A stretch of DNA of 64,000 nt from an uncultured bacterium (GTDB taxonomy: Bacteria > Bacillota_I > Bacilli_A > RF39 > UBA660): positions 52,433 to 116,432 of the forward strand of contig CASEYV010000001.1 of NCBI GenBank assembly GCA_949292245.1. Direction: 5' to 3'. Positions 3,910 to 47,354 of this stretch are shown piece by piece. Both the position numbers and the translations under genes were made by a program. Numbering within the stretch: the stretch's first letter is position 1; each line of letters opens with the position of its first letter. A model generated the notes under the pieces. The model was not told the origin of the DNA. It did no database searches and was given only the letters and a program-made list of their open reading frames with translations.

Positions 3910-3987
3910 TGGCATTCCCAGAGGGATTCGAACCCCCACTCTTTTCGTTCGTAGCGAAATGCTTTAGTCCAATTAAGCTATGGGAAC
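3910..3987 (-). tRNA. tRNA-Arg (anticodon ACG), CCA encoded
   Basis: The reverse complement folds as a cloverleaf. Acceptor stem is GTTCCCA/TGGGAAT, D-stem GCTT/AAGC with a GG loop, anticodon stem TTTCG/CGAAA around loop CTACGAA (U33, A37). T-arm is GGGGG TTCGAAT CCCTC, followed by discriminator G and CCA. Confidence 0.85.
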
Positions 3988-9315: not shown

Positions 9316-10491
9316 TTAGTTTTGTGGATTAATATTAAATTTATTTAATATATTATTAATAACTGCTTGTGTATCAGTATCAGAAATTGTTTCTGAATTT
9401 TGAGCAATTAACTGTGGAGCAGTCATTTGTTGTTGAGGAGTTGTATTAACCATTTGTTGAATCATATTTTGTAATTCAACAGCTTGTTGTGGATTAAAAT
9501 TCAAATTAGGTTGAACATTATTAACCACAGGTTGTGCCATTGTATTTACATCATTAGCAACATATTGAGTAGTGGTTGGAATTTCAGTTGCTACTGTCGT
9601 AGCATTCTTTCCGCCTTTAACATCTTTAATGTTACCTTGTTCATCAAAGAATACATTATCTGGTTTGAAAATTTTGCCCCAACGAGCTACATCATAAGGT
9701 TCTGAATTATATGATGCTTCGAACAATTCCAACATTACGTTTTCTTGTTCTTTTGTAGGTCTTGATGGAATAAAGTTTTTCAAAACAAATGGTTTATTTT
9801 CACTTAACCATGCTTTTTCAACTTCTGTCAATGGTGATTCATTACTTGACCATTTAGAAGTAGAATAATCTTTAACTTCTTGTGGTTTACCGTTAATATT
9901 AGCAATTTTTTTCGTTACTTTAAGAATAAAATCTCTACCATGTTCCATATCAGATGGTGTATGTTCGATTTCATCATCAGTAATAAATGAATAAATTACA
10001 TTAAACAAATCTTTATTAATTACAAATCTATAAAGTTTTGTTTCGTAACCTTCTGCTCTAATAAATCCTTGAAAAATATATCTTTCTGTTCTTCCAAATT
10101 TATTATATAATTTAGTTCCTTCTTCTGTTCCATCCCATAAAGGTTTAATTTTTTGATTGATTACATCATCAGAACTGTAATACAAATAATCTTCTGGAAG
10201 ATTAGATAAATTAACATCACCCTTTTTGATATTAAATGCTGGAACACTAACAAATGTTCTATTATCCATAATAGTTCCATTTGCCAATTTAATAGAATCA
10301 AATCTTAATGTTCTTGTAGAACGAGTTCTCCAAAAGAAATCATTTGGTTCGCCGTCATCAACGAATCTGATTCTAATTTGGTCTCCAATATTTAATTTTG
10401 AAAATGAAAATATAGATGATGAATCGTAATTTGAATTTGATTTTTGTGATGAGCTAATTTTAGCTCTTAATTCTGCAATAGATAATGCCAT
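9316..10491 (-). CDS. gp32-like single-stranded DNA-binding protein (candidate) with Q/N-rich C-terminal tail
   Basis: N-terminus ALSIAELRAKISSSQKSNSN...GDQIRIRFVDDGE resembles the T4 gp32 N-terminus (TAELAAQMAKLNGNKG...GQAVIRFLP). It sits next to uvsX. The C-terminal 80 aa are low-complexity Q/N-rich. Confidence 0.4.
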   Translation of the reverse strand: MALSIAELRAKISSSQKSNSNYDSSSIFSFSKLNIGDQIRIRFVDDGEPNDFFWRTRSTRTLRFDSIKLANGTIMDNRTFVSVPAFNIKKGDVNLSNLPEDYLYYSSDDVINQKIKPLWDGTEEGTKLYNKFGRTERYIFQGFIRAEGYETKLYRFVINKDLFNVIYSFITDDEIEHTPSDMEHGRDFILKVTKKIANINGKPQEVKDYSTSKWSSNESPLTEVEKAWLSENKPFVLKNFIPSRPTKEQENVMLELFEASYNSEPYDVARWGKIFKPDNVFFDEQGNIKDVKGGKNATTVATEIPTTTQYVANDVNTMAQPVVNNVQPNLNFNPQQAVELQNMIQQMVNTTPQQQMTAPQLIAQNSETISDTDTQAVINNILNKFNINPQN

Positions 10492-26138: not shown

Positions 26139-26474
26139 TTGAGTTCAATAACACTTGGTAATGTTAATTATAATATTTCATTAACAACACAATCTAATGC
26201 TGAATTAGGGGAAGGAAATCGTGGAAGAATTTGGTATGAAAAATTAACAATGTATATTGATAAAAATTTACCAGAAGAACTAAAAATTCAAACATTATAT
26301 CATGAACTTGCCCATGGAATTTGTGAAGAAACATCTTTTAATAGTATGTTAATGGATAAACTTGGTGAAAATGGATATGAAATTTTTATTGATTCGTTAG
26401 GTAAAACAATATATAATATGATTCATATGAATAATATGAATCTAATTGAAGATTATATTAAAAAATCAAAATAA
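26139..26474 (+). CDS. small zincin-like protein with HExxH motif (ImmA/IrrE-like or other minimal metallopeptidase)
   Basis: TLYHELAHGICEE has H-E-x-x-H plus a downstream Glu. Confidence 0.35.
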   Translation: MSSITLGNVNYNISLTTQSNAELGEGNRGRIWYEKLTMYIDKNLPEELKIQTLYHELAHGICEETSFNSMLMDKLGENGYEIFIDSLGKTIYNMIHMNNMNLIEDYIKKSK

Positions 26475-27628: not shown

Positions 27629-28216
27629 TTAATTAAATTTACTCATAGCTACAATAATTGATAGAGCATAAGCTATGGCATGAGATTTTTTGTATTGGTA
27701 ACCGTTATTTTCTTTTAACCATATTTTATCTATAATAGATTCCCAACCATTTTTCAAAACATCGTCTATTAAATATTTTTTTCCTGGACGAATAATGGCT
27801 ATAAACATCGCAAGTTTTTCAACAGAATCAATTAAAGGTAATTGATTTAATAATGTATAATAATTATTAATATGTGGTAATTTCTCAACAATTTCTTTTT
27901 TATATAATAAACCCCAATTTGGTTCTTTATTTAAACTATCAATAATTTCATTACGAGAATTAAAATCATCATAAACAGTATTATGTAAGAAATCTATTTT
28001 AATATATCCTAAATCTTCTTCTGCGTGTTTATAATCTATTGAAGCTAAACCAGATATTCTATCTTGTGGAATATCACACATATATATTCCAACACCATGC
28101 GGAAATATACCTTTTTCATTTATTTTTGAAGCAGGTATATGATGTAGTTTTTCTAACATATCTTCTCTTGATTTTTGTGATATATCTATATCCAAATCTG
28201 GTATAATATATGTCAT
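27629..28216 (-). CDS. hypothetical protein
   Basis: 195-aa ORF. Confidence 0.35.
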   Translation of the reverse strand: MTYIIPDLDIDISQKSREDMLEKLHHIPASKINEKGIFPHGVGIYMCDIPQDRISGLASIDYKHAEEDLGYIKIDFLHNTVYDDFNSRNEIIDSLNKEPNWGLLYKKEIVEKLPHINNYYTLLNQLPLIDSVEKLAMFIAIIRPGKKYLIDDVLKNGWESIIDKIWLKENNGYQYKKSHAIAYALSIIVAMSKFN

Positions 28217-28876: not shown

Positions 28877-30493
28877 ATGGTGAAAAAAGGTAATACTATT
28901 AGATTTGGTAATAAAATATTTGTTATCGAAAATTTCGATTCTGATAATTTTTTATTAAAAGATAAAGAAACAAATATCATAAATTGGGTCAGTAAAAAAG
29001 AAGTAAAAGAAAATTTAGAACCAATAAATTTTTCTTCATCTATATTATTAGAATCAAATTGTCGTAAATCCTCATTTAATAATAATTATATCACAATCAA
29101 TTTATATGAAAATAATAATAGTTCTACATTTGAAATAATTGACGGTAAAAATATATATACTAAAACATATGATTATAATAAAAATCGTGCTATATATGAA
29201 TTTAATAAATTTTTTAAATATACCAATGAATTAACACCATTTAGATTAAAAAAATATGGTTTTTTGTTAAAAGAATCTGAAAAAGAACCTAAATTTAATG
29301 ATGCTTTTTGGAAATGGTTTGGTAATAGTGTATATAAAAACAGTAGAGGTAATCCTTTAATTGCTTATCATAATTCTCCAAATAAATTTAATGAATTTGA
29401 TATTAATAAAGTTGGTTCTCGTGATTTTGGATTTTATGGTTATGGTATTTATTTTTCAACACATAAAAGTATAGCTAGTCAATATGGAAAAAATCATTAT
29501 GCTGTTTATTTAAAAATGGAAAATCCATTTATGTTTGACCGTGAACATTATAAATATTCTATCACTGAAGAAGCATATGCTATTGTTAAAAAATATGAAG
29601 AATACAATTTATTAACAGAAGATGAATTAAATATAGTTCATGAATTAGAAAATATTTTTAATAATACAAAAATTCAAGAAGAAAAAACAACAGTTATTGA
29701 AAATGGACGAACATATCCAACAACAGTTTATCATTTACAATATAAAGATAAAACATATTCAACAGACCCACATATGGTATTAGATGAAAAAGATGCTATG
29801 ACTCAATTTATATATAATGATTTTGGTAATTTATTAAAATCATTAAAACAAATATATAATGTTTGTATGAGACAACGTAATAAACAATTTGCTCAAATGT
29901 TACAAAAAAATGGTTATGATAGTATTTGGGCTGGAACAGAAATAGTAGTATTTAATCCAAAGCAAATTAAATCTGTTAAAAATGTTGGAACATGGAATCC
30001 TGATTCAAATAATATATATGAATCAATGAATGTTATAGAAACAAAAGAATCTCCAATATATATTACAAATAATATGTATGATATTTTAAAATTACAGAAA
30101 AAAATGACATCATTAAGAGTTCTTATTGATGAACAAAAGAAAATATATATGATTGGTAATGCTTTATATCATATTCATGGAGAACTTTTTGATGAAGCTA
30201 TTGAAGCAGGATATTATAATTTTAATAACGAAAGAGAAAAAGATATATATTGGGAAAATCTTCCAGCTATTATAATTGATACAGATGATTTTTTAAAACA
30301 AGAAAGAAAAGATGATTATTTTGATGGAATACTTCGTTGTAATGGTTTTGTTGTTTATTATAGAACTAATAATTATACAGAAAGCGATTTTACTAAAACA
30401 AAACTTTATAATTTATTAGTATCAAAATATAATGGTAAGCAAGAAATAAATGAAAATAAATTATCTATTGGGGATATAGTAAAGAGCAAATAG
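28877..30493 (+). CDS. protein with a PARP-like (H-Y-E class) ADP-ribosyltransferase signature
   Basis: Residues 163-205 are IAYHNSPNKFNEFDINKVGSRDFGFYGYGIYFSTHKSIASQY. The PARP catalytic signature is LLWHGSRTTNF......[20 protein letters not shown]. They share H-x-S, the N-F pair, G-x-GIYF-[AS] and the KS-A-Y tail. Confidence 0.45.
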   Translation: MVKKGNTIRFGNKIFVIENFDSDNFLLKDKETNIINWVSKKEVKENLEPINFSSSILLESNCRKSSFNNNYITINLYENNNSSTFEIIDGKNIYTKTYDYNKNRAIYEFNKFFKYTNELTPFRLKKYGFLLKESEKEPKFNDAFWKWFGNSVYKNSRGNPLIAYHNSPNKFNEFDINKVGSRDFGFYGYGIYFSTHKSIASQYGKNHYAVYLKMENPFMFDREHYKYSITEEAYAIVKKYEEYNLLTEDELNIVHELENIFNNTKIQEEKTTVIENGRTYPTTVYHLQYKDKTYSTDPHMVLDEKDAMTQFIYNDFGNLLKSLKQIYNVCMRQRNKQFAQMLQKNGYDSIWAGTEIVVFNPKQIKSVKNVGTWNPDSNNIYESMNVIETKESPIYITNNMYDILKLQKKMTSLRVLIDEQKKIYMIGNALYHIHGELFDEAIEAGYYNFNNEREKDIYWENLPAIIIDTDDFLKQERKDDYFDGILRCNGFVVYYRTNNYTESDFTKTKLYNLLVSKYNGKQEINENKLSIGDIVKSK

Positions 30494-30588
30494 AAAAATT
30501 AAACCTTTGCGATAAATTAAAACAAATATATCCGAATGGTTATAAATTAGAAAACGAATGGTAAAAAGAGGAGCAAATGCTCCTCTTT

Positions 30589-31116
30589 TTATTCAATATT
30601 TATAAGTTTAATTTCTTCTTCTTTTTCTTTTTTATCTTTAAATTCAATAGTCAAAAGACCATTTTCCAATGAAGATTTGACAAATTCTAATGAATCACAC
30701 ATCTTCCATGAATTTTCAAATTCTCTCATTGCGATACCTTTATAGCAATATACTCTTCCTTCACCATCACAAAAAACTCCACTTCCTTCCATAGTAAAAT
30801 CGTCTTTGCCCCTTTTTCCTTTTGAACCTTTAACAGTCAAGACATTAGTTTTTGTATTATATGTTATTTTTAACATATCTTTGGTATATCCAGCACAAGC
30901 TAACTGAATAAAAGTATGAACTTCTTTATGACAATCTGCTTCTTTACCATTGTCATTACAAACATTTACTTCTTCTGTAAAAATACTATATGGTGGGAAA
31001 GTTGTTTCTTTAAAAGAATTACTAAATTTATCTAAATCATCAAAAAAATCTGAAAATCCAATAAGATTACGTTTATTATTAAAGACATCAAAAAATGTCA
31101 TCAAATTATTTGCCAT
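30589..31116 (-). CDS. small heat-shock protein, Hsp20/alpha-crystallin family
   Basis: Alpha-crystallin-like core (ITYNTKTNVLTVKG...REFENSWKMCDSLEFVKSSLENGLLTIEF) and a C-terminal I-x-I motif (LINIE). Confidence 0.6.
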   Translation of the reverse strand: MANNLMTFFDVFNNKRNLIGFSDFFDDLDKFSNSFKETTFPPYSIFTEEVNVCNDNGKEADCHKEVHTFIQLACAGYTKDMLKITYNTKTNVLTVKGSKGKRGKDDFTMEGSGVFCDGEGRVYCYKGIAMREFENSWKMCDSLEFVKSSLENGLLTIEFKDKKEKEEEIKLINIE

Positions 31117-31202: not shown

Positions 31203-32456
31203 TCAATTTTCAATATTATTTGACAAATATTTTATCATTTCTTCGTGATAAATTTCACCAAATTTTTTTCCAGAAAATTTAGAAAGTCTTTCTTGAACTT
31301 TTTCTGGTAAATCTTTTAAAGTTATGCCGTGCATAACATCAAAAATTTTTAACATTCTTTGTTCAATTTTTTGTCTTTCTATTTTTTCTTCATCTGAAAC
31401 TGTTAATGCTCTACCATAACAATCACATCTAGTTACTTCAATGAAATCAATCAATCTTTGACGATTTTTGAAATTTAATGAAATAGCTTTAATCATATCG
31501 TATTGCTTTCTTAGCTTCATTTGATGAAATCTATGAGCATTCATATGATAACGACAAGATATTAAAGCAAAATCACGATATTCATTTGGAATTTTAACTC
31601 TATCACATAATTTTTCAATTACTGATAATCCATTAAATTCATGACCATGATGAGCTGGTAAAATATCTTGTGGAGTTAATGCTTTACCTAAATCATGACA
31701 CAATACAGCAAATTTAACCATTGGAGATAATTGATTCCAATCAGCAACTCGCAAACACAACATTGTATGTTCAAAAGAATTACCTTCTGGATGATATTCC
31801 AATTTTTCTGGAGTATCAATTAAAGCATACAATTCTGGAAGAACAATTTTTAATGCTCCACTTTCTTGGAGATTTCTAATGAATTTTTCTGTTATACAAT
31901 TAGATTGTAATGCTTTTTCAATTTCTTTCCATACTCTTTCTTCTGTTAAGTGTTCAATCATTTTATTTTCAACCATCGTTTGCAATAAATTCATAGTATT
32001 TCTTTCAATATTAAAATCTAATTGAGCTGAAAAACGGCAAGCTCTTAATAATCTTAATGGGTCTTCGATAAAAGTTTCATCACGAACAGCTCGTAATAAT
32101 TTATTTTTTAAATCATCTTGACCATTAAAATAATCAATTACATTTCCATTTTCATCTAATGCCATAGCATTAATTGTAAAATCTCTACGAACTAAATCAT
32201 CTTCCAAAGAAACATCAGATGAAAATTCAAATTCAAAATCAGTATGTTTATCACCAATTTTTCTTTCTTTTCTTGCTAAAGCATATTCTTCGTTTGTTTC
32301 TGGGTGTAAAAACACAGGAAAATCTTTACCTACTTGGTGAAAACCAAGAGATTCCATTTCGGAAATAGAAGAACCAACAACAACATAATCATTATCATGT
32401 GATGTTCTATCTAATAATTTATCTCTAACTGCCCCACCAACTAAATAAGTTTTCAT
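31203..32456 (-). CDS. cca: CCA-adding tRNA nucleotidyltransferase (class II, with HD domain)
   Basis: N-terminal LVGGAVRDKLL, the RRDFTINA-type head domain and an HD motif (CHDLGKALTP, HHGHE). Confidence 0.85.
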   Translation of the reverse strand: MKTYLVGGAVRDKLLDRTSHDNDYVVVGSSISEMESLGFHQVGKDFPVFLHPETNEEYALARKERKIGDKHTDFEFEFSSDVSLEDDLVRRDFTINAMALDENGNVIDYFNGQDDLKNKLLRAVRDETFIEDPLRLLRACRFSAQLDFNIERNTMNLLQTMVENKMIEHLTEERVWKEIEKALQSNCITEKFIRNLQESGALKIVLPELYALIDTPEKLEYHPEGNSFEHTMLCLRVADWNQLSPMVKFAVLCHDLGKALTPQDILPAHHGHEFNGLSVIEKLCDRVKIPNEYRDFALISCRYHMNAHRFHQMKLRKQYDMIKAISLNFKNRQRLIDFIEVTRCDCYGRALTVSDEEKIERQKIEQRMLKIFDVMHGITLKDLPEKVQERLSKFSGKKFGEIYHEEMIKYLSNNIEN

Positions 32457-32467
32457 TTAACAATCCT

Positions 32468-32701
32468 TTATAAAATATCTTTCATATATAAAAATCTTAA
32501 AATTTGTATTGAATATGGTTTATTTACTTCATTGATATTAATATCAAAATTAGAATATCTTAAAAATAAATTATTATTTTGTTGCTTAACTATAAAAGAT
32601 TGATATTCATGAATTGGTTCTTTAATGCCAAATTCTACTAAAATCAAATCTCCGTCTTTTAATTTATTTTTATTATTTTCCCAATTTAACCATTTACTCA
32701 T
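32468..32701 (-). CDS. hypothetical protein
   Basis: 77-aa ORF. Confidence 0.3.
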   Translation of the reverse strand: MSKWLNWENNKNKLKDGDLILVEFGIKEPIHEYQSFIVKQQNNNLFLRYSNFDININEVNKPYSIQILRFLYMKDIL

Positions 32702-32772
32702 TTAATTCTCTTAAAAATAAAATACACTCATTTAAATATTATGAGTGTATTTTATCAGAAATTATTTTAATG

Positions 32773-33924
32773 TCAAGCATTTTTAATAAAATCTTCAACC
32801 ATATCGGCTAATTTATCATAAGTTAAATCGCTAATATATTGCATAGCACAATCGTATTTGTTATCGATAGCTTTAAACATATAATTAGAGAACTTACAAT
32901 TTTTTAATATGTATTGAGCTTTATCTTTTCTGCTTTCTAATGAATTGATGTAATCAATATTAGAGTTATATTCATCATCGATTGCGTTAATCAATGAGTG
33001 ATATCCATCTAACATTCTTTGAATATTTAATTTATATTCAGAGAAATAATTTAAGAATTCATCAATTTCATTATTGACAATTAATATCATTGCTTTTTTA
33101 GGAGTTAAAATTCCTTGTCCTTTCAAATGATGCACTGCAACATAAGATGGAGATTTAACTTTAACTCTATTGAAATTTTTATCTACAACGACATATCCTT
33201 CTTCTGTATATGGTAATTCATTTGCTGCCAAAATACATTCATTTAATGATTTAAAACCATATTGTTTTGGAGTTTTAAATATTTTTGCCAAAGGATGGTC
33301 ATAAATTAAAATTTCTTCTAATGATTTGTTATTTCTAACACCAATCAAGCATAAATTAATTCCTTCATAAGGAATAACAACTTTATTATATGGTGAAATT
33401 AATTCAAACATATAAGTATAGTTTTCTTCGAATAAATCTAACCATTTATCTTTTGAAATTGATTTTAATGGTTCAGCATTTTCAATTAATTCCTTATAAT
33501 TAGAATATTTAAAATCTAAATTTTGAGCAACTTCGGCTTTTGAAGCATCGATAGTTCCATTAGTAGAAATCAACAAATCATTACCCAATCTAACTATTTT
33601 AATTAAAGAACCGTCAATTTTTTGAGTAATTTTAGCAGATTTCCAATCTATTTCTGGACAATATGATTCACCATAATTTCCAAATTTGTAGAATGGAACA
33701 GATACTGGTTCTAATGAATCAATATCAATAATCAATCCACGGCATTCTCTAACGATTTCATTATTAAAATCAGAAGAAATTTGGTTATATTTTAATAATG
33801 CTAAATTTCTACCATACATATTATCTTTAGATACAGATATACAATATGGAGATTGAGCTAAATCATCTTCCCAATTTTTATGTGATTTAATATATTCAAT
33901 AACTTTTAACATTTCAATCTCCAT
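32773..33924 (-). CDS. rnlA: RNA ligase 1 (T4 RnlA-like)
   Basis: Motif I TQKIDGSL (KxDG). ECRGLIIDIDS aligns with T4 ECRGIMFEMDG. EGYVVVDKNFNRVKVKSPSYVAVH aligns with [24 protein letters not shown]. Confidence 0.85.
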   Translation of the reverse strand: MEIEMLKVIEYIKSHKNWEDDLAQSPYCISVSKDNMYGRNLALLKYNQISSDFNNEIVRECRGLIIDIDSLEPVSVPFYKFGNYGESYCPEIDWKSAKITQKIDGSLIKIVRLGNDLLISTNGTIDASKAEVAQNLDFKYSNYKELIENAEPLKSISKDKWLDLFEENYTYMFELISPYNKVVIPYEGINLCLIGVRNNKSLEEILIYDHPLAKIFKTPKQYGFKSLNECILAANELPYTEEGYVVVDKNFNRVKVKSPSYVAVHHLKGQGILTPKKAMILIVNNEIDEFLNYFSEYKLNIQRMLDGYHSLINAIDDEYNSNIDYINSLESRKDKAQYILKNCKFSNYMFKAIDNKYDCAMQYISDLTYDKLADMVEDFIKNA

Positions 33925-33988
33925 TAAAAAAACTCATCTATTTAAGATGAGTTTAATATATCATAATTTATTTTAATGTCAACACATT

Positions 33989-34249
33989 TTATATATTTTC
34001 TTCTGAACTTTCTAAAATCAAATATTTACCTTCATTAAGACCTTTTTCATAAGATTCATTTTTGATTTTTTCTTCAATTCTTTCATCTATTTCATCTAAT
34101 GAATGAATTAAATATTCTTTAATCAACTTTAATTCCGATAATGAACAATTATTAAGCTCATTATCATTGGTTTCATTCATAATACCACCAAATTCTTCAC
34201 AGTCAGCATTGACAATAGAAATGTATGTTTTCAATGTTTTTATTGACAT
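33989..34249 (-). CDS. hypothetical acidic protein
   Basis: 86-aa ORF. Confidence 0.3.
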   Translation of the reverse strand: MSIKTLKTYISIVNADCEEFGGIMNETNDNELNNCSLSELKLIKEYLIHSLDEIDERIEEKIKNESYEKGLNEGKYLILESSEENI

Positions 34250-34250
34250 A

Positions 34251-34847
34251 TTATTCTCCCAATATTTTTATTTGCTGATATATAGTTTCTTCAGCTTTTA
34301 AAATCATTTGCTTGTAAATTTTAAACATTATTGAAGAATCATCTTGAAACAATTCTTTCGCTCTCTTAATAAATTCTTCTTTTTCACCAAGATACTTTTT
34401 AGCAAATGAAGAATCTCTTTTAACAATATCATGACAGTTGTCAATAATATCAGCCAATTTAACAATTATAGAATCAATACTACCTTTTAAAGTATGTTCC
34501 ATATCTATCATTTTTCTAATTTTGCGATTTCCATCTTCTGGTTTAGAAATGTTTGTTAAATATTCAACATTTTTACTATAATATTCTCCAAATAAACTTT
34601 CTATTTCTTCCAATGTAGCATCAGTATCTTCAACAGTATCATGTAGATAAGCCAATTCTTCTAAACGATAGATTATATCCAAATCCATAGGTTGAATATC
34701 AGAGCAAATTTTACTAATTATTTTAGCAACACTAATAGGGTGAGTAATATATGATTCACCTGTATATTTTCTTGTTTGACCTTTATGTTTTTCAGTCGCA
34801 TAATCTAATATTTTATCGTGTTTAAAATCTCTATATTCACTACTCAT
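34251..34847 (-). CDS. small alarmone hydrolase, RelA/SpoT-type HD domain (Mesh1/SAH-like)
   Basis: KHKGQTRKYTGESYITHPISVAKII aligns with SpoT HRKGQFRKSGEPYITHPLAVAEIL. AYLHDTVEDTDATLEEIESLFGE aligns with ALLHDVVEDTDVTLEEIEERFGP. IIVKLADIIDNCHDI aligns with ILIKLADRLHNMRTL. Confidence 0.7.
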   Translation of the reverse strand: MSSEYRDFKHDKILDYATEKHKGQTRKYTGESYITHPISVAKIISKICSDIQPMDLDIIYRLEELAYLHDTVEDTDATLEEIESLFGEYYSKNVEYLTNISKPEDGNRKIRKMIDMEHTLKGSIDSIIVKLADIIDNCHDIVKRDSSFAKKYLGEKEEFIKRAKELFQDDSSIMFKIYKQMILKAEETIYQQIKILGE

Positions 34848-35028
34848 TTTTTAATATCCAATCATTTGATAATATATATTCTGTTTTTAATCCGTAAATT
34901 GGTAAATCATTTAATCCATCATTTACAAATAATTGATTACCAACAAAATAAAAATAATTTGTAGTTAATGATGGAATATAACAATGATTTCCTTGCTTCA
35001 TTTTTGGTAAAATTTCTTCAAATGTCAT
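34840..35028 (-). CDS. hypothetical small protein
   Basis: 62-aa ORF in a tandem array of small ORFs. Confidence 0.3.
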   Translation of the reverse strand: MTFEEILPKMKQGNHCYIPSLTTNYFYFVGNQLFVNDGLNDLPIYGLKTEYILSNDWILKNE

Positions 35029-35036
35029 TTTTATTC

Positions 35037-35246
35037 CTAATTAATTATATCAGAATCTGAAATTGATGCGAAATCATATGTATATAATACATCAGGTTTT
35101 TTAATTGTCAATGGAAATGTTTTATGGTCACTATTTTGCATAATAGCTTCCATAAAATCTTTTTTAGTAGTTGCATTTTCTACTTCCAATACAACACTTT
35201 CCACATATTTAACTGTTCTATTGATTATTACTTTTCCCATCTTCAA
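35037..35246 (-). CDS. hypothetical small protein
   Basis: 69-aa ORF. Confidence 0.3.
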   Translation of the reverse strand: MKMGKVIINRTVKYVESVVLEVENATTKKDFMEAIMQNSDHKTFPLTIKKPDVLYTYDFASISDSDIIN

Positions 35247-35433
35247 TTCCCAATAATTTTTTATAATTAATATCCATAACTTTGTTTGTTATTTCGGATT
35301 CTTCATAAAATCTGTCTTGACCATCAACAATTCCTAATGCCCACAATAATTGAATAAATCGTAATTGAGGACAAGCATCGACAATTTTAGATATTTTTTC
35401 TACAATTTGTTTATTTTCTTCAAGTCTTGACAT
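35218..35433 (-). CDS. hypothetical small protein
   Basis: 71-aa ORF. Confidence 0.3.
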   Translation of the reverse strand: MSRLEENKQIVEKISKIVDACPQLRFIQLLWALGIVDGQDRFYEESEITNKVMDINYKKLLGIEDGKSNNQ

Positions 35434-35473
35434 ATTTTTTCTCCATTATTGTAAATCTTCTTGTGATACCATT

Positions 35474-35671
35474 TTATTTCCCTTTATTTTTTAAGTCTTT
35501 TAATGCTTTATTATAAAGTTTATTAGCAATTAATTCATTTCTATAATGAAATTTATTCTTTTTAATTTTTTCAATTACATTATCAATATCAATTTTATCT
35601 GAACCTCTTTCTTTTTTAGATAATTCTTCATTAAGTTTTTCAACTTCTTCATATTCAAATTCGTCTTGCAT
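35474..35671 (-). CDS. hypothetical small protein
   Basis: 65-aa ORF. Confidence 0.3.
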   Translation of the reverse strand: MQDEFEYEEVEKLNEELSKKERGSDKIDIDNVIEKIKKNKFHYRNELIANKLYNKALKDLKNKGK

Positions 35672-35679
35672 ATAAATCC

Positions 35680-36177
35680 TTATCTATGTAATTTAATATT
35701 ATATTGTTCACAATCTTTTTTAAACATATCAAATGTTTCATCTTCACCAACTAAAAATAACCAAGAACAAGTATGTTCATTTCTGGTGCAATTAATCATA
35801 CCATAATTATCCATAGTTGCATTATCGCATACTGTAATATCATATTTTTGTTTAGTTTTTGTATCCATTAAATCCAATAATTCTTTTTGAGCTTTAAATG
35901 GATATGTGCTATCCATAATATGACCTTGACACCATTCATCTGTATATTTAAACAAAAGATTCCAAATATCTTTATTTGAACCTTCTAAAACTACTGTCGT
36001 TCCAAAACCTTCACCTTCATTTATCCAATTTTGAAAGTATTGATTATCATTTTTATTATTGGAAGACATAAATTCTTTTACAAATTGAGCTGAAGCATGT
36101 GATGCTTGTGCCATGGCTTTTCCAGCATTCAAAGATGGTAAATCATTTCTCATAAAAATATATAAAACTTGTTTCAT
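35680..36177 (-). CDS. peptidyl-tRNA hydrolase, PTH2 family
   Basis: VLYIFMRNDLPSLNAGKAMAQASHAS matches the PTH2 core [25 protein letters not shown]. Confidence 0.6.
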   Translation of the reverse strand: MKQVLYIFMRNDLPSLNAGKAMAQASHASAQFVKEFMSSNNKNDNQYFQNWINEGEGFGTTVVLEGSNKDIWNLLFKYTDEWCQGHIMDSTYPFKAQKELLDLMDTKTKQKYDITVCDNATMDNYGMINCTRNEHTCSWLFLVGEDETFDMFKKDCEQYNIKLHR

Positions 36178-36231
36178 ATCAATATCTCCTATATTGATGA
36201 TAATAACAAATATATATTTTTAAGTCAATAG

Positions 36232-36732
36232 TTATTCGTATGTTTTTTTAAATTTGTGTTTAATTTTTTTAAATACTTTTTCTTGCTCTATTTCTAATCC
36301 AAGTTTTCTATATTCACCAGCTAAATCATCTGCAATATTATTATAGTATGATAATTTGGTTCCATCGTGAATATGACCTTTTATTTGCATAAATTTTACT
36401 TTTTTTCTTGTAAAATCTAAAAAATCATATATATAATTTAGGCAAGATGATTCAAATTCATCTTGCCCTTTATTTCTTTGTGAAATTTTTCTTAACGCAG
36501 TTGCAGAATCAGAAATAATTGTAATTGTTTTATCATCCATTCTATCTACAATTTTATTATTACAAATATATTGAATAGCCATAGCAATTGCAGCAATTTC
36601 CGCTACATTATTATCACGACATTTATTTGTATATGTTCCAAAAGTATGTTCTCTACCTTTATATAAAAGAACCGCACCAAATCCACTCATACGAGGTTTT
36701 AATGAGTGACTTCCATCAGTAAATATAATCAT
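36232..36732 (-). CDS. rnhA: ribonuclease HI
   Basis: IIFTDGSHS...GFGAVL...TNNVAEIAAIAMAI fits the RNase H1 DEDD fold order (TDGS...G.G.V...TNN.AE..A...AL). Confidence 0.7.
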   Translation of the reverse strand: MIIFTDGSHSLKPRMSGFGAVLLYKGREHTFGTYTNKCRDNNVAEIAAIAMAIQYICNNKIVDRMDDKTITIISDSATALRKISQRNKGQDEFESSCLNYIYDFLDFTRKKVKFMQIKGHIHDGTKLSYYNNIADDLAGEYRKLGLEIEQEKVFKKIKHKFKKTYE

Positions 36733-36763
36733 ATTATTTCCTTTGGTGCTTCTATATAATTAT

Positions 36764-37207
36764 TTATTTGTCTAATAATCCTAAAAATTTTTGGATATTT
36801 TTAATTTCATCCGATGTCATTGATTGATATTTTAAATCAAACTCATCATCTGATAAATTTTTATAAAAATTTCTAATTAAATTATAATTTTTATCATTTT
36901 TATTTTTAGATTGAGCTATCCATTGATGTTTAAATGATTTATTTAATCCACAAGTGCATAACAATTTAAATTGTAAATCTTTATATTTTGATAATTCCCA
37001 ATAATGAGTATTAACATTATTATTAACTAATTTTGTTAATTGTATATGTTGTTTTTCTTGTCCATATATTGCCGACATCCAACGACATAATGTATAAGGT
37101 TGAATTTCTTTTTGTTGTTCTGACGATAAAGATTCAAAATATTGATAATTTTTATTATCAATATTTTTTAATACATCAAAAATATCATTTTTATAAGTTT
37201 TAGCCAT
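36764..37207 (-). CDS. hypothetical protein
   Basis: 147-aa ORF. Confidence 0.35.
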   Translation of the reverse strand: MAKTYKNDIFDVLKNIDNKNYQYFESLSSEQQKEIQPYTLCRWMSAIYGQEKQHIQLTKLVNNNVNTHYWELSKYKDLQFKLLCTCGLNKSFKHQWIAQSKNKNDKNYNLIRNFYKNLSDDEFDLKYQSMTSDEIKNIQKFLGLLDK

Positions 37208-37671
37208 TAATTATCTCCATATTTATATAATACACATTTTATTGGAGATTTTGCAAAAATATCTTCAATAATTTTATATACAATATTCCAATCACCACCA
37301 GCTAATCCACAACCTATTTTATAAGGTATAGCCACCGATAAATTATTATATTCGGCATATTCTTTTACTTGATTTAATGATAATTTTAATGATTCATAAT
37401 CCGTTTGTAAACCAGTTCCATATGATAATTGACCAAAACAATTCATAACATATTTTGAATTATCAACATTTACAATTTGAGTATAACCCATTAAACTATT
37501 TGGAAATTTTTTATATAAATCACATAATATTTTATATTTGTCAAAAATTACAGGATATTTTTTTCTTAATTGTAGAGCTAAACCAGCTCCCATTACTCCT
37601 AAACAATTTGTTTGATGGACAATTATATTTTCCGAACAATTTAATATATTACCATTTATAATATCAATCAT
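37207..37671 (-). CDS. macro domain protein (ADP-ribose binding / processing)
   Basis: NIIVHQTNCLGVMGAGLALQL aligns with YmdB VIVNAANPSLMGGGGVDGAI. LSVAIPYKIGCGLAGGDW aligns with TSVAFPAISTGVYGYP. Confidence 0.75.
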   Translation of the reverse strand: MIDIINGNILNCSENIIVHQTNCLGVMGAGLALQLRKKYPVIFDKYKILCDLYKKFPNSLMGYTQIVNVDNSKYVMNCFGQLSYGTGLQTDYESLKLSLNQVKEYAEYNNLSVAIPYKIGCGLAGGDWNIVYKIIEDIFAKSPIKCVLYKYGDN

Positions 37672-38693: not shown

Positions 38694-40664
38694 TTATTTA
38701 AATAATCCAGATTTTGTTCCATATCTATTAATAGTTAAGCATTGATTTCTTAATGAACCATCCTTATATGAAACATGAACCCAACCACTATTAGGGTCAG
38801 AAGCTAAATTATCAGCATATTCTAAAATTAATTGGTCAAATTGTAAATTTTCTTTTATCCACAATGCTAAATCGTAATTATTTACACCAGCTATTTCAAT
38901 ATCAGCAGCTTCGCCTTTACAGTGTTGAGAAGAAGTAGCACCGCCAATTATAGCGTTTAAAGTTCTACCTCTATATCCACTATTAACTATAACACGTTTA
39001 TTATAATTTGTCCATATTGGTTCTAAAATATTTTCAGCCAACGCTCTTAATTTTGCAATTTCATCGTCTAATGGAACATTAGATATACCGTTTCTATAAG
39101 CCGTATCGGAATAACATAAATCAGCCAACGTAAAGTGTTCCGATAATTGCATTTGAGGTATAGTTGTATCTTTAGATACATCTGGTGGTATAGGTGTTAT
39201 AGGAGCAATTTGATTAGAAACATAATTAGAAGATGATGATATAACCTCATAATTATAAGGTACAGGATTAATATTCAAAATTGGAAATGTTTCATTTCTA
39301 TCATGAACTGCATATGGTTCATGCGAAGGCATAGAACTAACAATAGTATTTTCATTTTTACCTATAATTGTAGGTATAGATTTAACTTCTTCTATATTTG
39401 GTGATACAACATTAGCAGGCGGAACATCAGGTATAGGTTGTGCAACTGGAATAATTCCAGAATTTGTTGCATAATAAGCTGTTCCTTGTAAAGTTCCAGA
39501 AAAAACACCATTCATATTTGCAGAAGCGGAAGTCAATGTCTCAATATTACCAGTTTTGATTGCAATTTCAGGAGCTGAAATAATACTATTTGTTACTATT
39601 CTTGGTGCATCAATATTTATATTACCACTACTTTCAATAGAAAAATCTCCACTTGTTTTTAATACAAATCCTTCATCAGCTTCCATTCTAATTTTTTTCT
39701 TAGAACGTAAATTTATATCACCGTCACAAGCTATATCAGCACTTGTTTTCGCATAACCGTGAATTCTTCCGTCATCAGATATTTCAAACCAAGCTGAACC
39801 ATCTCTATTAATAGCATATATATTACCATCATCAGATATCAATAATTGTGTTCCATTTCGTGTTCTTAATCTAAAACCAGCATTATATCTTTTTTCATCA
39901 ACTCTTTGAGATGGCATTAAACCATCAGAACCTCTTAATTCTGTATTAGTACTGCCCATATTCCAATTTTGTTTATTATCTTCCTCTGACCAACCATCAT
40001 CAATAGTAAAAGAATTTCCTAATGGTGTTAAAAATCCATAACACATACTTGGAGATTCACGCTTAGAACCAGCAGTGGATGGTCCTCTTAATTTATCGTC
40101 TTTTAAACCTTGTTCAGATAATGAATTTTTTAATGGTATATATTCGCATCTTCCTTCTTCTTTTTTTATTAAAGGAGTTCCACGATTAATATATGTTGAT
40201 TGTTCTACTTTATCATTAAGCTCACATAATGGAGTTTTTTCATCATTAAAAAATTGACTTGGTATTCCAGGAACCATTGAATTAATTGAACTATTAATTG
40301 GACAAGAAAACCAAAATGGTGTAATATTTTCACCAGTAATATTTGGATAAAATATAAAAACTTTATTTCCAACAAATGGCATTGGAAACCATATACCAAA
40401 AGATTTTGGAGATGTCATATAATTATTAATTTCAGAAATAGAATAAGGAGATGTTCCAAAAAATGGGGAAGCATAAGAAGCAGTAATCCATCTTTTTTGG
40501 TCATCTCTTGGAATATCAGAGCCCATTATCCATACTTTTATTTCACCAGCTCTTGTAACATTTCTAGTGTCCATAACTTCTGCCATATAAATACGACCAG
40601 GGTCTAATGTTCTATTTCTTGAGCTAAATTCAGCATTTGTAAAATTATTATCTAAACGTGGCAT
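38694..40664 (-). CDS. baseplate central spike protein (gp5/gpV-like OB domain plus beta-helix) with a C-terminal peptidase M15 (VanY-like) cell-wall hydrolase domain
   Basis: N-terminal AEVMDTRNVTRAGEIKVWIMG...RWITASYASPF (Phage_base_V-like). The middle has repetitive beta-strand motifs. The C-terminus has VIVNSGYRGRTLN...SQHCKGEAADIEI (M15 SxHxxGxAxD). Confidence 0.7.
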   Translation of the reverse strand: MPRLDNNFTNAEFSSRNRTLDPGRIYMAEVMDTRNVTRAGEIKVWIMGSDIPRDDQKRWITASYASPFFGTSPYSISEINNYMTSPKSFGIWFPMPFVGNKVFIFYPNITGENITPFWFSCPINSSINSMVPGIPSQFFNDEKTPLCELNDKVEQSTYINRGTPLIKKEEGRCEYIPLKNSLSEQGLKDDKLRGPSTAGSKRESPSMCYGFLTPLGNSFTIDDGWSEEDNKQNWNMGSTNTELRGSDGLMPSQRVDEKRYNAGFRLRTRNGTQLLISDDGNIYAINRDGSAWFEISDDGRIHGYAKTSADIACDGDINLRSKKKIRMEADEGFVLKTSGDFSIESSGNINIDAPRIVTNSIISAPEIAIKTGNIETLTSASANMNGVFSGTLQGTAYYATNSGIIPVAQPIPDVPPANVVSPNIEEVKSIPTIIGKNENTIVSSMPSHEPYAVHDRNETFPILNINPVPYNYEVISSSSNYVSNQIAPITPIPPDVSKDTTIPQMQLSEHFTLADLCYSDTAYRNGISNVPLDDEIAKLRALAENILEPIWTNYNKRVIVNSGYRGRTLNAIIGGATSSQHCKGEAADIEIAGVNNYDLALWIKENLQFDQLILEYADNLASDPNSGWVHVSYKDGSLRNQCLTINRYGTKSGLFK

Positions 40665-45119: not shown

Positions 45120-47354
45120 TTATTCCCCAAAATAAATTTTATTATCTTTTATTTTTAATAATATTTTTCCACCATTTTTATATTTTCCAAAAACAATATC
45201 TTTTGCTATCACATTTTTAATTTCATTAGTTATTATATGTTTCATAGGTCTAGCACCGTTATTGGAATTTTCAACCTTTTTAACGATATAATTTATTATA
45301 TCATCATTATATTCAAAATCAATCATTTTTTTTGACAAAATAGATTTTAATTCGTCCAAAAATTTTATGCAAATTGTTTTTAATACATCTGATGACAAAT
45401 TATTAAAAGTAATAGTTGAATCAATTCTATTTCTAAATTCAGGTAAAAATCTATCTTCATAATCTTGGTCAGATGGTGTATAATCATCATTACCAAAACC
45501 AATTCGTATTTTATGAGAATTATACGAACCGACATTTGATGTCATAATTAAATAAACATGCTCAAATGAAACTGATTTACCAGATGATGAAGTCAATTTA
45601 CCATTATCCATTACTTGTAATAAAACATTATGTATTTTAGAATTAGCTTTTTCAATTTCATCTAATAATAAAATACAAGATGGATGTTCATCAATAGCAT
45701 TAATTAATAAACCATTACCTGATTTACCATCTCCGAAACCTTTATATCCAGGAGGAGCACCTAGTAATTTAGACACACTATGTTCTTCCATATATTCAGA
45801 CATATCAAATCTAACCAATGGAATATTCAAAATTTTTGACAATACTTTACATATTTCTGTTTTACCGACACCAGAAGAACCTTTAAACATCAAAGATATA
45901 GCCGTTTTATTTGTTTCTCTTAATCCAGATTTAGAAATAATAACAGCTTCACTGACTTTTTTTACAGCTTCATCTTGTCCAATAATTTCTTTTTTTATAG
46001 TATTTTCTAAATTTTTATAAATTTCTTCTTCTGATAAAGAAATATTATTTAAAGGTATGCCTAATAATATAGACAATACTTTATAAATCATATCTTCTGA
46101 TATTTCTTTTTCATTGTGATATGTAGCATAAGCTCCGACTGTATCTAAAATATCAATCGCTTTTTCAGGAAAAAACTTATTATAAAAATATCTATTACAA
46201 TAATCCATTATTAAATCAATTATTTTTTCTGAAAAAGTAACATTAAAATTATTTTCATATAATGATTTAATATTCATTATAATATTTTTAGTTTCATCAA
46301 ATGATGGTTCTTTAACAGTAAATTTAAAAAAGTTTTTTACAAAATTGTCATCTTTTTCAATAAACCTACGATAATCTTCATTAGTTGTAATGCCAATAAT
46401 TTTAATTTTACCATCACAAAGCATTGGCTTAAATAATGATGATAAATCATTTTGACTTGAATAATCACCATTTCCACACATAAAATGTATGTCATCAATA
46501 ATTAAAACTACATTTTCTTTTTTATTTAAAATATTATGTAATGTTTTTACTCTATTTTCAATTTCACCTTTAACCATAATATTTGCAGTAAAAGATAAAT
46601 TATCTAATAATAGAAATTCTTTATCAGTATATTTTTCACTGTAAATTTTTGCCAAGCCTTCTACTAACTTAGATTTACCAACACCATGATTACCAACAAG
46701 TATAATATTTGGTTTATCATGTCTTAATAAAATATATTGTAACAACTCTAATTCATCATCACGACCAATTAAAGGTTGCCATTCTTTCCCCTTTACTTTT
46801 TCAGTTAAATTAATTGTATATTGTGATAAAAATAATTGTTCTTTTTTATTTGAAGAACCATCTAATGTTTCATTTATAATTTCTGATACACGATTAGACA
46901 TATTAGATGAATAAGATTGATAAATTTTTGTCAAAAATAATGGACTAACATTATTTGACAATAATATTTTTTGAGAAAAAGTTTCTTCCATAAACAAAAA
47001 AGATGCAATGACATTTGTTATAAATAAAACATCTTTATTTATAACAACATCTTCATTACATTTATGACATAGATTGCAATATCCTAAAAATACCAAAACA
47101 TGTGGAGAAATTTCTATATTATCGCTTGAACTTTCTATATGTTCCATTAAAGGATAATTAGAAATAAAATCTTCTAATTCTTTTGTAATTTTTTTATAAT
47201 CAATTTTATATTTTTTAAATAACTTTAAAAAATGTTCGTCTTTCATAACGACATATAAAACATGTTCCAAATGAACATATTTTGAACTATAATTTTGGGC
47301 CACTTTTTTTGATTCATTAATAAGTTCTTGTAATCTTTCAACAAAATCAATCAT
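45120..47354 (-). CDS. ClpA-like AAA+ unfoldase (Clp_N domain, two AAA modules, IGF ClpP-docking loop)
   Basis: D1 Walker A LVGNHGVGKS and D2 Walker A FKGSSGVGKTE. The sensor is GARPMKHII. KIRIGFGNDD...FRNRID aligns with the ClpA IGL loop RKSIGLIHQDN...FRNRLD. Confidence 0.8.
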   Translation of the reverse strand: MIDFVERLQELINESKKVAQNYSSKYVHLEHVLYVVMKDEHFLKLFKKYKIDYKKITKELEDFISNYPLMEHIESSSDNIEISPHVLVFLGYCNLCHKCNEDVVINKDVLFITNVIASFLFMEETFSQKILLSNNVSPLFLTKIYQSYSSNMSNRVSEIINETLDGSSNKKEQLFLSQYTINLTEKVKGKEWQPLIGRDDELELLQYILLRHDKPNIILVGNHGVGKSKLVEGLAKIYSEKYTDKEFLLLDNLSFTANIMVKGEIENRVKTLHNILNKKENVVLIIDDIHFMCGNGDYSSQNDLSSLFKPMLCDGKIKIIGITTNEDYRRFIEKDDNFVKNFFKFTVKEPSFDETKNIIMNIKSLYENNFNVTFSEKIIDLIMDYCNRYFYNKFFPEKAIDILDTVGAYATYHNEKEISEDMIYKVLSILLGIPLNNISLSEEEIYKNLENTIKKEIIGQDEAVKKVSEAVIISKSGLRETNKTAISLMFKGSSGVGKTEICKVLSKILNIPLVRFDMSEYMEEHSVSKLLGAPPGYKGFGDGKSGNGLLINAIDEHPSCILLLDEIEKANSKIHNVLLQVMDNGKLTSSSGKSVSFEHVYLIMTSNVGSYNSHKIRIGFGNDDYTPSDQDYEDRFLPEFRNRIDSTITFNNLSSDVLKTICIKFLDELKSILSKKMIDFEYNDDIINYIVKKVENSNNGARPMKHIITNEIKNVIAKDIVFGKYKNGGKILLKIKDNKIYFGE

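Follow-up and report, generated by a model that had tools for sequence, protein, structure and literature searches.

The 64,000-nucleotide stretch of contig CASEYV010000001.1 analysed here (termed the window) comes from an AT-rich jumbo myovirus and encodes, at positions 28877-30493, a 538-residue protein that almost certainly belongs to the ART-PolyVal family of ADP-ribosyltransferases (ARTs). We observe in this ART protein the family's sequence and fold, its conserved residues at the binding site for nicotinamide adenine dinucleotide (NAD+), namely H165, Y192/F193, D348 and E355, and a modular build, and its gene occupies a locus that is syntenic yet hypervariable and is surrounded by virion genes. 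On balance we favour the view that it is a protein of the polyvalent class, whose PARP-like ART-PolyVal module would attach single ADP-ribose units to a host macromolecule early in infection. The ART is likely to be enzymatically active. The gene and the parts into which its product can be divided are as follows.

28877..30493, plus strand: ART gene, whole coding sequence with an ATG start, 538 residues, from the list of open reading frames (ORFs), its translation and PF18760; a C-terminally shortened allele with one ART-PolyVal domain.
28877..29290, plus strand: N-terminal module (N), residues 1-138, a Tudor/SH3/KOW-like beta-barrel (residues ~6-46) followed by a beta-meander and a helix.
29291..29536, plus strand: N-terminal half of the ART core, residues 139-220, with the lead-in helix NDAFWKWF, strand 1 carrying H165, strand 2 carrying GIYFS, and strand 3 with an N-P turn.
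29537..29911, plus strand: insert of ~125 residues between the halves of the ART core, residues 221-345, modelled as helices and a three-stranded beta-meander.
29912..30052, plus strand: C-terminal half of the ART core, residues 346-392, with GYD/D348, a hairpin, TEIVVF/E355, the last strand QIKS and the tail N-G-W-x3-S-x-N-I-x-E.
30053..30463, plus strand: C1 module, residues 393-529, alpha/beta, defined by its recurrence in jackhmmer searches; pLDDT (the per-residue confidence of the predicted structure) is 70-83 in the AF2 model.
30464..30565, plus strand: deletion scar, located by a blastn comparison of the window with the related contig L001 and by three-frame translation.

Family membership rests on a match to PF18760 (ART-PolyVal, "ADP-ribosyltransferase in polyvalent proteins"), which scores 64.4 bits (E 2.5e-17), double the gathering score of 31.2. 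Residues 156-369 are aligned with profile positions 2-135 of 140, and since 214 residues are thereby spread over 134 positions, the ART domain must hold at least about 80 inserted residues. The initial annotation had given the bounds, strand and length of the ORF exactly, and had pointed to a PARP catalytic signature, which is present as IAYHNS...GYGIYFSTHKSIASQYG at residues 162-204 (the numbering 163-205 proposed there is one too high) and which the Pfam score places beyond chance. The assignment of the protein to the H-Y-[EDQ] clade, typified by PARPs and diphtheria toxin, rather than to the R-S-E clade of T4 Alt, ModA and ModB also stands: the ART region matches PF18760 and is modelled as a split beta-sheet of the ART fold, with pLDDT above 90 in the N-terminal half of the core. 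The suggestion that such a protein would represent a different lineage among phages does not carry over as a novelty. ARTs of the H-Y-D type have been known in phage polyvalent proteins since 2017 (PMC5512222) and the family is represented in Pfam, so this gene is a further member of a computationally described family and no new lineage.

Relationship to the eukaryotic enzymes is scarcely visible at the level of sequence. The ART protein has no match to the PARP catalytic domain (PF00644) at E<=1, and nothing significant was retrieved when PDB sequences were searched, either with a single sequence or with a profile. A profile of the ART family reached PARP13 and PARP4 chains in the PDB at sub-significant E values of 0.6-1.4, and hhalign to an approximate PARP1 query sequence aligned 21 columns, confined to the GKGIYF region, such that the catalytic Glu could not be mapped. 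Several other assignments were considered for the protein and rejected. An Alt-type R-S-E enzyme was dismissed since strand 1 carries His rather than Arg and strand 2 carries Y-F rather than S-x-S, with no Alt-type Pfam match; the KptA/Tpt1 RNA 2'-phosphotransferases (H-H-h clade) since the second position is Tyr rather than His, with no match to PF01885; and a DarT-type enzyme on its active-site residues together with the absence of matches to the corresponding models.

In order to examine the active site we used two alignments, one comprising 16 ART copies taken from the nearest relatives (A1) and one of 102 family members (A2), the latter being the source of the column counts given here. 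H165 (codon 29369-29371) and F193 are each retained in 102 of the 102 sequences. At position 192, the ART protein has Tyr (codon 29450-29452), which is shared by 12 of the 102 members, the remaining 90 having Trp. D348, within the GYD motif (codon 29918-29920), is kept in 101/102, and position 355, here Glu (codon 29939-29941), is Asp in 66, Glu in 11 and Asn in 14 of the 102, giving an acidic residue in 77. In the predicted structure, strands 1 to 3 comprise residues 162-167 (containing H165), 191-194 (containing Y192) and 206-220 (kinked at a conserved Asn-Pro), and strands 4 to 6, C-terminal to the insert, comprise residues 349-352 (immediately after D348), 355-358 (with E355 as the first residue) and 364-366.

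We infer a catalytic triad of H165, Y192 and E355, in which position 355 would correspond to the acidic "D in strand 5" that Iyer et al. described in the ARTs of polyvalent proteins (PMC5512222). This position is favoured over D348 because of the order of the strands in the model, the family consensus D-Y-x-V-F in the region of the catalytic strand, and an alignment of the family profile with PARP4 that places GYD on GYDSV and E355 on the Glu of DDE (6.2 bits for the stretch, non-significant alone); DDE is the catalytic X-X-E motif of PARP4 (PMC7955679). D348 had been our first choice for the family's "D in strand 5" and remains a candidate, now less favoured; it may contact NAD+ as well. Of the two strands put forward by the initial annotation as possible carriers of the catalytic Glu, TEIVVF (residues 354-359) is therefore probably the correct one, and NHYAVY (residues 206-211) is strand 3.

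With Glu at position 355 and Tyr at 192, the putative triad would literally be the H-Y-E of PARPs. Compared with the ART-PolyVal domains described previously (also called "N4-ART" or Tox-ART-HYD2-related; PMC5512222, PMC9503650), the protein has in common the His of strand 1, the aromatic residue of strand 2, an acidic residue that opens the strand assigned as strand 5, the embedding in a multi-domain phage protein, the existence of giant relatives with multiple copies, and a neighbourhood of virion genes. It differs in being short (538 residues) with one ART copy, in its ~125-residue insert with a beta-meander, in modules N, C1 and C2 that fall outside Pfam, and in having Glu rather than the usual Asp at the third position of the putative triad and Tyr in strand 2 rather than the Trp of most fetched members. 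Compared with the eukaryotic PARPs (PF00644; PARP4, PARP10, PARP13, PARP15, the tankyrases and PARP1-3), it has neither the helical regulatory domain nor the long donor and acceptor loops; just four residues form the loop that leads into its catalytic strand, and it occurs in the context of a phage effector. A hydrolase or phosphorylase resembling the MbcT/RES toxins, which would consume NAD+ without any transferase activity, is extremely unlikely: MbcT and RES score below some 15 PARP domains, their active-site residues differ from the H-Y-E set, and depletion of NAD+ would be harmful to a lytic phage, several phages being described in PMC13464706 as restoring NAD+.

A comparable system is AcrIF11 (6kyf, 8dwq), a mono-ART of phages and plasmids by which the type I-F CRISPR complex is inactivated and whose specificity has been shown experimentally. 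The two proteins share the ART fold, an active site of the H/aromatic/D type, a variable helical region between the halves of the core and an origin in mobile elements, and no homology between them was found at the sequence level. It is possible, but unlikely, that the ART protein serves in the same manner as an anti-defence factor, inactivating one host immune protein by mono-ADP-ribosylation and leaving the core machinery of the cell without reprogramming. The insert may constitute the target-recognition region, by analogy with the part of AcrIF11 described as its variable helical region (PMC12421852). Its length varies greatly across the family, as seen in A1, and inserts of the same type are present in P0003, P0148, P0153, P0158 and P0162.

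The division of the protein into four parts was obtained from local iterative searches (jackhmmer) on the fetched relatives. Module N occupies the N-terminus of those multi-domain relatives that possess it (P0001, P0003, P0131 and P0162) and also occurs as a stand-alone protein of 136-138 residues and in the fragments P0152, P0184 and P0178; its barrel resembles CarD and the C-terminal Tudor domains of UvrD. C1 recurs in at least 20 fetched relatives of the polyvalent type, sometimes twice in one protein, and has no match in Pfam at E<=1. A word-indexed search with C1 alone missed close relatives that do exist, hence our use of local jackhmmer for this module. A further module, C2, is found in about seven fetched relatives, including P0001 (residues 536-643), P0148, P0137, P0163, P0185 and P0188, and lies at the extreme C-terminus in three of them (P0001, P0137 and P0148). 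None of the partner modules N, C1 and C2 has a Pfam family. C1 and C2 had appeared by eye to be repeats of one module, a notion that we abandoned as iterative searches link neither to the other.

A search with HMMER, exhaustive over 1.84 billion representatives, retrieved 4426 relatives at E<=1e-3, 41 of them at E<=1e-30. Among the best 150 relatives, 87 exceed 1000 residues and 46 exceed 2000 residues, and the number of matched stretches in one protein can reach 15, a size and repetition that identify them as polyvalent proteins in the sense of Iyer et al. (2017). The ART protein, which carries three further modules, is likewise multi-domain. Among the domains that accompany the ART in close relatives are AAA_33, which is kinase-like, and DUF5662, and by eye some of these relatives also show motifs of zincin-like (HExxH) and ParB-like (HEGRHR) type. 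Neither the ART gene nor a 24-kb stretch had any match in the phage collection at the DNA level, and a scan of IMG/VR with the ART protein gave no relative.

On related AT-rich phage contigs (24-27% G+C), ART-PolyVal genes encoding 643, 712 and 1003+521 residues occupy the same slot, which is bounded on one side by two small minus-strand genes and on the other by genes for Hsp20 and a CCA-adding enzyme, the Hsp20 gene being missing from the slot in the relative L003. The locus is thus a syntenic but hypervariable slot. The G+C content of the ART gene (22-25%) is that of its neighbours (24-25%) and gives no compositional sign of recent foreign origin; the small island of accessory cargo proposed by the initial annotation is not a compositionally foreign one. 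The description of the phage as T4-type was likewise imprecise. Its baseplate hub shares about 33% identity with the hubs of ~350-kb phages of Serratia, Erwinia, Salmonella and Vibrio, which makes it a jumbo myovirus with distant kin such as Serratia phage BF and not strictly of the T4 type.

The allele in the window has undergone a deletion. Relative to contig L001, with which it shares 98% nucleotide identity, 244 nucleotides are absent (compared stretch, L001 11588-11833), and the resulting shift of frame adds nine new residues (SIGDIVKSK) before a stop codon at 30491-30493. Most of C2 has been lost in this way, its last ~33 codons surviving out of frame at 30466-30565. An intact relative of 97% identity has 643 residues, and the ART, N and C1 parts align with it without internal stops. 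A second instance of breakage is seen in a 289-kb relative, where the gene in the slot (L005, ~9960-10001; also L006) is split by a frameshift within C1 into ORFs of 1003 and 521 residues; the 1178-residue representative P0131 is unbroken across C1 at the corresponding point. Together the deletion and the split homologue suggest that the gene may be decaying, and the stand-alone N-module fragments mentioned above would fit the same picture. It is nevertheless very unlikely that the protein is a decaying or catalytically silent remnant, that is, a structural or scaffold module left from a formerly larger polyvalent protein and now devoid of enzymatic function, as every conserved ART residue is intact, the identity to the complete relative is maintained throughout ART, N and C1, and the deletion leaves all residues up to 529 in place.

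Immediately beyond the gene there is an element that it shares with its neighbour.

30560..30593, no strand assigned: bidirectional hairpin resembling an intrinsic terminator, common to the ART gene and the convergent Hsp20 gene (terminator scan; 2 found as against 0.3 expected).

The Hsp20 gene itself (30589-31116, minus strand) is directly convergent with the ART gene. Genes for chaperones are also found elsewhere in these phages: the window encodes a ClpB-like double-AAA chaperone (45120-47354, minus strand), and in the relative L008 (8847-10890) GroEL and GroES adjoin the ART gene instead. On the upstream side, and divergent from the ART gene, lies an ORF of 195 residues (27629-28216, minus strand) that matches phrog_11778, labelled "DNA polymerase", at E 7e-56; it is far too short for a polymerase and has no Pfam match. 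A 111-residue ORF with a TTG start (26139-26474, plus strand) contains the motif HELAHG of IrrE/M78-like metallopeptidases, with a Pfam score of 22.2 against a threshold of 22. A scan for promoters gave sites at no more than the frequency expected by chance.

The ART gene is located among virion structural, tail-fibre and baseplate genes, and P0002 adjoins baseplate genes. The baseplate hub of the window (38694-40664, minus strand) combines a gp5-like N-terminal part with a C-terminal M15 peptidase, and its relatives are annotated with lysozyme. The T4 enzymes Alt, ModA and ModB offer a functional model, being phage ARTs that are encoded near baseplate genes and modify host proteins, with Alt packaged in the head and injected, but they have the R-S-E triad of the Alt/VIP2 family and provide neither a sequence match nor a top structural match to the ART protein.

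The context for delivery in the virion also includes a structural match to a protein from inside a capsid. The ART-only model superimposes on chain B of 9k3a, gp27 of cyanophage A4, over 130 residues at 3.6 A. This protein of 1717 residues is an ejection protein of the capsid pre-ejectosome of a podovirus, and its residues ~1421-1606 contain the segments YHGT...GSGTYFS...NSP...GVDAL...TTLVINPDAV, which are the motifs of the ART family in the same order. At the position equivalent to E355 gp27 has Thr, with an Asp one residue earlier, and its likeness in sequence is borderline (2.2 bits; among four proteins, E 0.056). Pfam searches with A4 gp26, gp27 and gp28 detected no ART domain, and the published description of gp27 mentions neither an ART domain nor ADP-ribosylation. 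A spurious match between helices had been entertained as an explanation for 9k3a_B, and was dropped after the 130-residue superposition of the ART-only model, the identity of the chain as gp27 and the presence of the motifs. That gp27 holds an ART domain of the ART-PolyVal kind is moderately supported. Given these indirect pointers, carriage of the ART protein in the virion is a plausible though tentative proposal.

The sequence of events that we favour is as follows. The split beta-sheet would take up NAD+ in the cleft that separates its two halves, with H165 making contact and Y192/F193 providing the stacking surface; E355 would stabilise the oxocarbenium intermediate as nicotinamide is released; and a single ADP-ribose would then pass to a macromolecule of the host, most probably a protein, which the ~125-residue insert would select, a role already suggested for the variable helical region in AcrIF11. 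The constant N-terminal module may serve for incorporation into the virion or for targeting, and the enzyme would act at or soon after entry of the DNA, like T4 Alt. It is distinctly improbable, in our estimation, that the ART instead modifies nucleic acid for host shut-off, whether bases or ends of DNA or RNA, as do DarT, PARP1-3, TRPT1/PARP10 and CmdT.

A number of points weigh against this proposed course of events. To our knowledge no member of PF18760 has been assayed to date, and activity, the class of target and the choice between mono- and poly-transfer are all inferred. The preference for E355 over D348 depends on a profile alignment of 6.2 bits, on strand order and on conservation in the family. 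Packaging of the ART in the virion is a prediction for this phage, and it is not a family-wide property, since a solo homologue of Dickeya phage JA33 is located among replication genes. The frameshifting deletion has cost this allele its C-terminal module, the same locus is split by a frameshift in the relative L005, and the promoter-like site upstream of the ART gene is no better than chance.

A second gene with a potential connection to ADP-ribose is present in the window, and its prediction by the initial annotation proved correct.

37207..37671, minus strand: stand-alone macro domain of 154 residues, similar to DarG, AdfM and Poa1p (PF01661, DarG models, AdfM).

The macro protein matches PF01661 with 33.6 bits (threshold 22) and phrog_335 at E 4.4e-40. 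Models of DarG recognise it with 72 bits (NCBIfam) and 74 bits (PADLOC), over the macro part of DarG only, and it is 28% identical (E 3e-13) to gp104 of phage PhiKZ (AdfM), with the catalytic Asn kept (N22 aligned on N23 of AdfM). Like AdfM it is a stand-alone protein of a jumbo phage, and it is without the C-terminal DarT-binding domain of DarG. AdfM has been shown to strip ADP-ribose added by DarT2 from DNA (PMC13309987), and phage macro domains have been argued mostly to process soluble ADP-ribose derivatives or to counter ADP-ribosylation of DNA by the host (Iyer et al. 2022, PMC9503650). The gene ends a cluster devoted to translation rescue and RNA repair (31203-37671, minus strand), in which it is accompanied by genes encoding a multifunctional CCA-adding enzyme with an HD domain, an RNA ligase of the T4 Rnl1 type, a SpoT-like HD hydrolase domain of 198 residues, a peptidyl-tRNA hydrolase of the PTH2 type and RNase H. 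The sole tRNA found in the window, a tRNA-Arg (anticodon ACG), is encoded at 3910-3987 on the minus strand.

The initial annotation had also raised the prospect that the two genes form one system, in which the ART would write ADP-ribose and the macro domain would read or remove the same mark or detoxify by-products. The two genes are genuine and are found in a single phage, at a distance of 6.7 kb, and there is a precedent in that the human macrodomain hMacroD2 removed the AcrIF11 mark in lysate (PMC12421852). Such a pairing is nonetheless very improbable. The genes are on opposite strands with at least 12 ORFs of unrelated function in between, and no homologue of the macro protein was detected, by tblastn at E<=1 or by Pfam, within flanks of up to 10 kb at six loci, each from a different relative of the ART protein (L003, L004, L005, L008, L009 and L010). 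At L003 the flanking genes for RNase H and a 147-residue protein are retained and the macro gene is absent. The two families also differ widely in distribution, macro homologues being present in 2026 phage records (under labels including Appr-1''-p processing, phosphatase and macro domain) as against 18 for the ART, and the nearest characterised relatives of the macro protein act on DNA modified by DarT.

A more elaborate version, according to which an H-Y-E enzyme adds ADP-ribose, possibly as short chains, to host nucleic acid or RNA polymerase, with the barrel providing the targeting and a DarG-like macro domain protecting or resetting the phage's own molecules, so that an offensive writer is combined with a self-protecting eraser, is if anything more improbable still. 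The macro domain is probably functionally independent of the ART and represents a separate counter-defence enzyme, whose role would most likely be the removal of ADP-ribose placed on phage DNA by host DarT-type toxins, or the processing of soluble ADP-ribose derivatives. The occurrence of an ART and a macro domain in one phage should therefore not be annotated as a writer-eraser pair without evidence of linkage.

ART-PolyVal is the commonest predicted macromolecule-modifying enzyme domain in the polyvalent effectors of phages, and the protein described here is a compact and tractable member of this large predicted family, with 538 residues and one ART copy. Its apparently complete set of H, Y and E makes it well suited to studies of what such enzymes modify. 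Two by-products of the analysis are the most useful: this compact construct of H-Y-E type, which could serve biochemistry, and the probable ART domain in the ejection protein of phage A4. If the latter is confirmed, gp27 would give a first piece of physical evidence for the carriage of such ARTs inside capsids, as has been predicted for polyvalent proteins.

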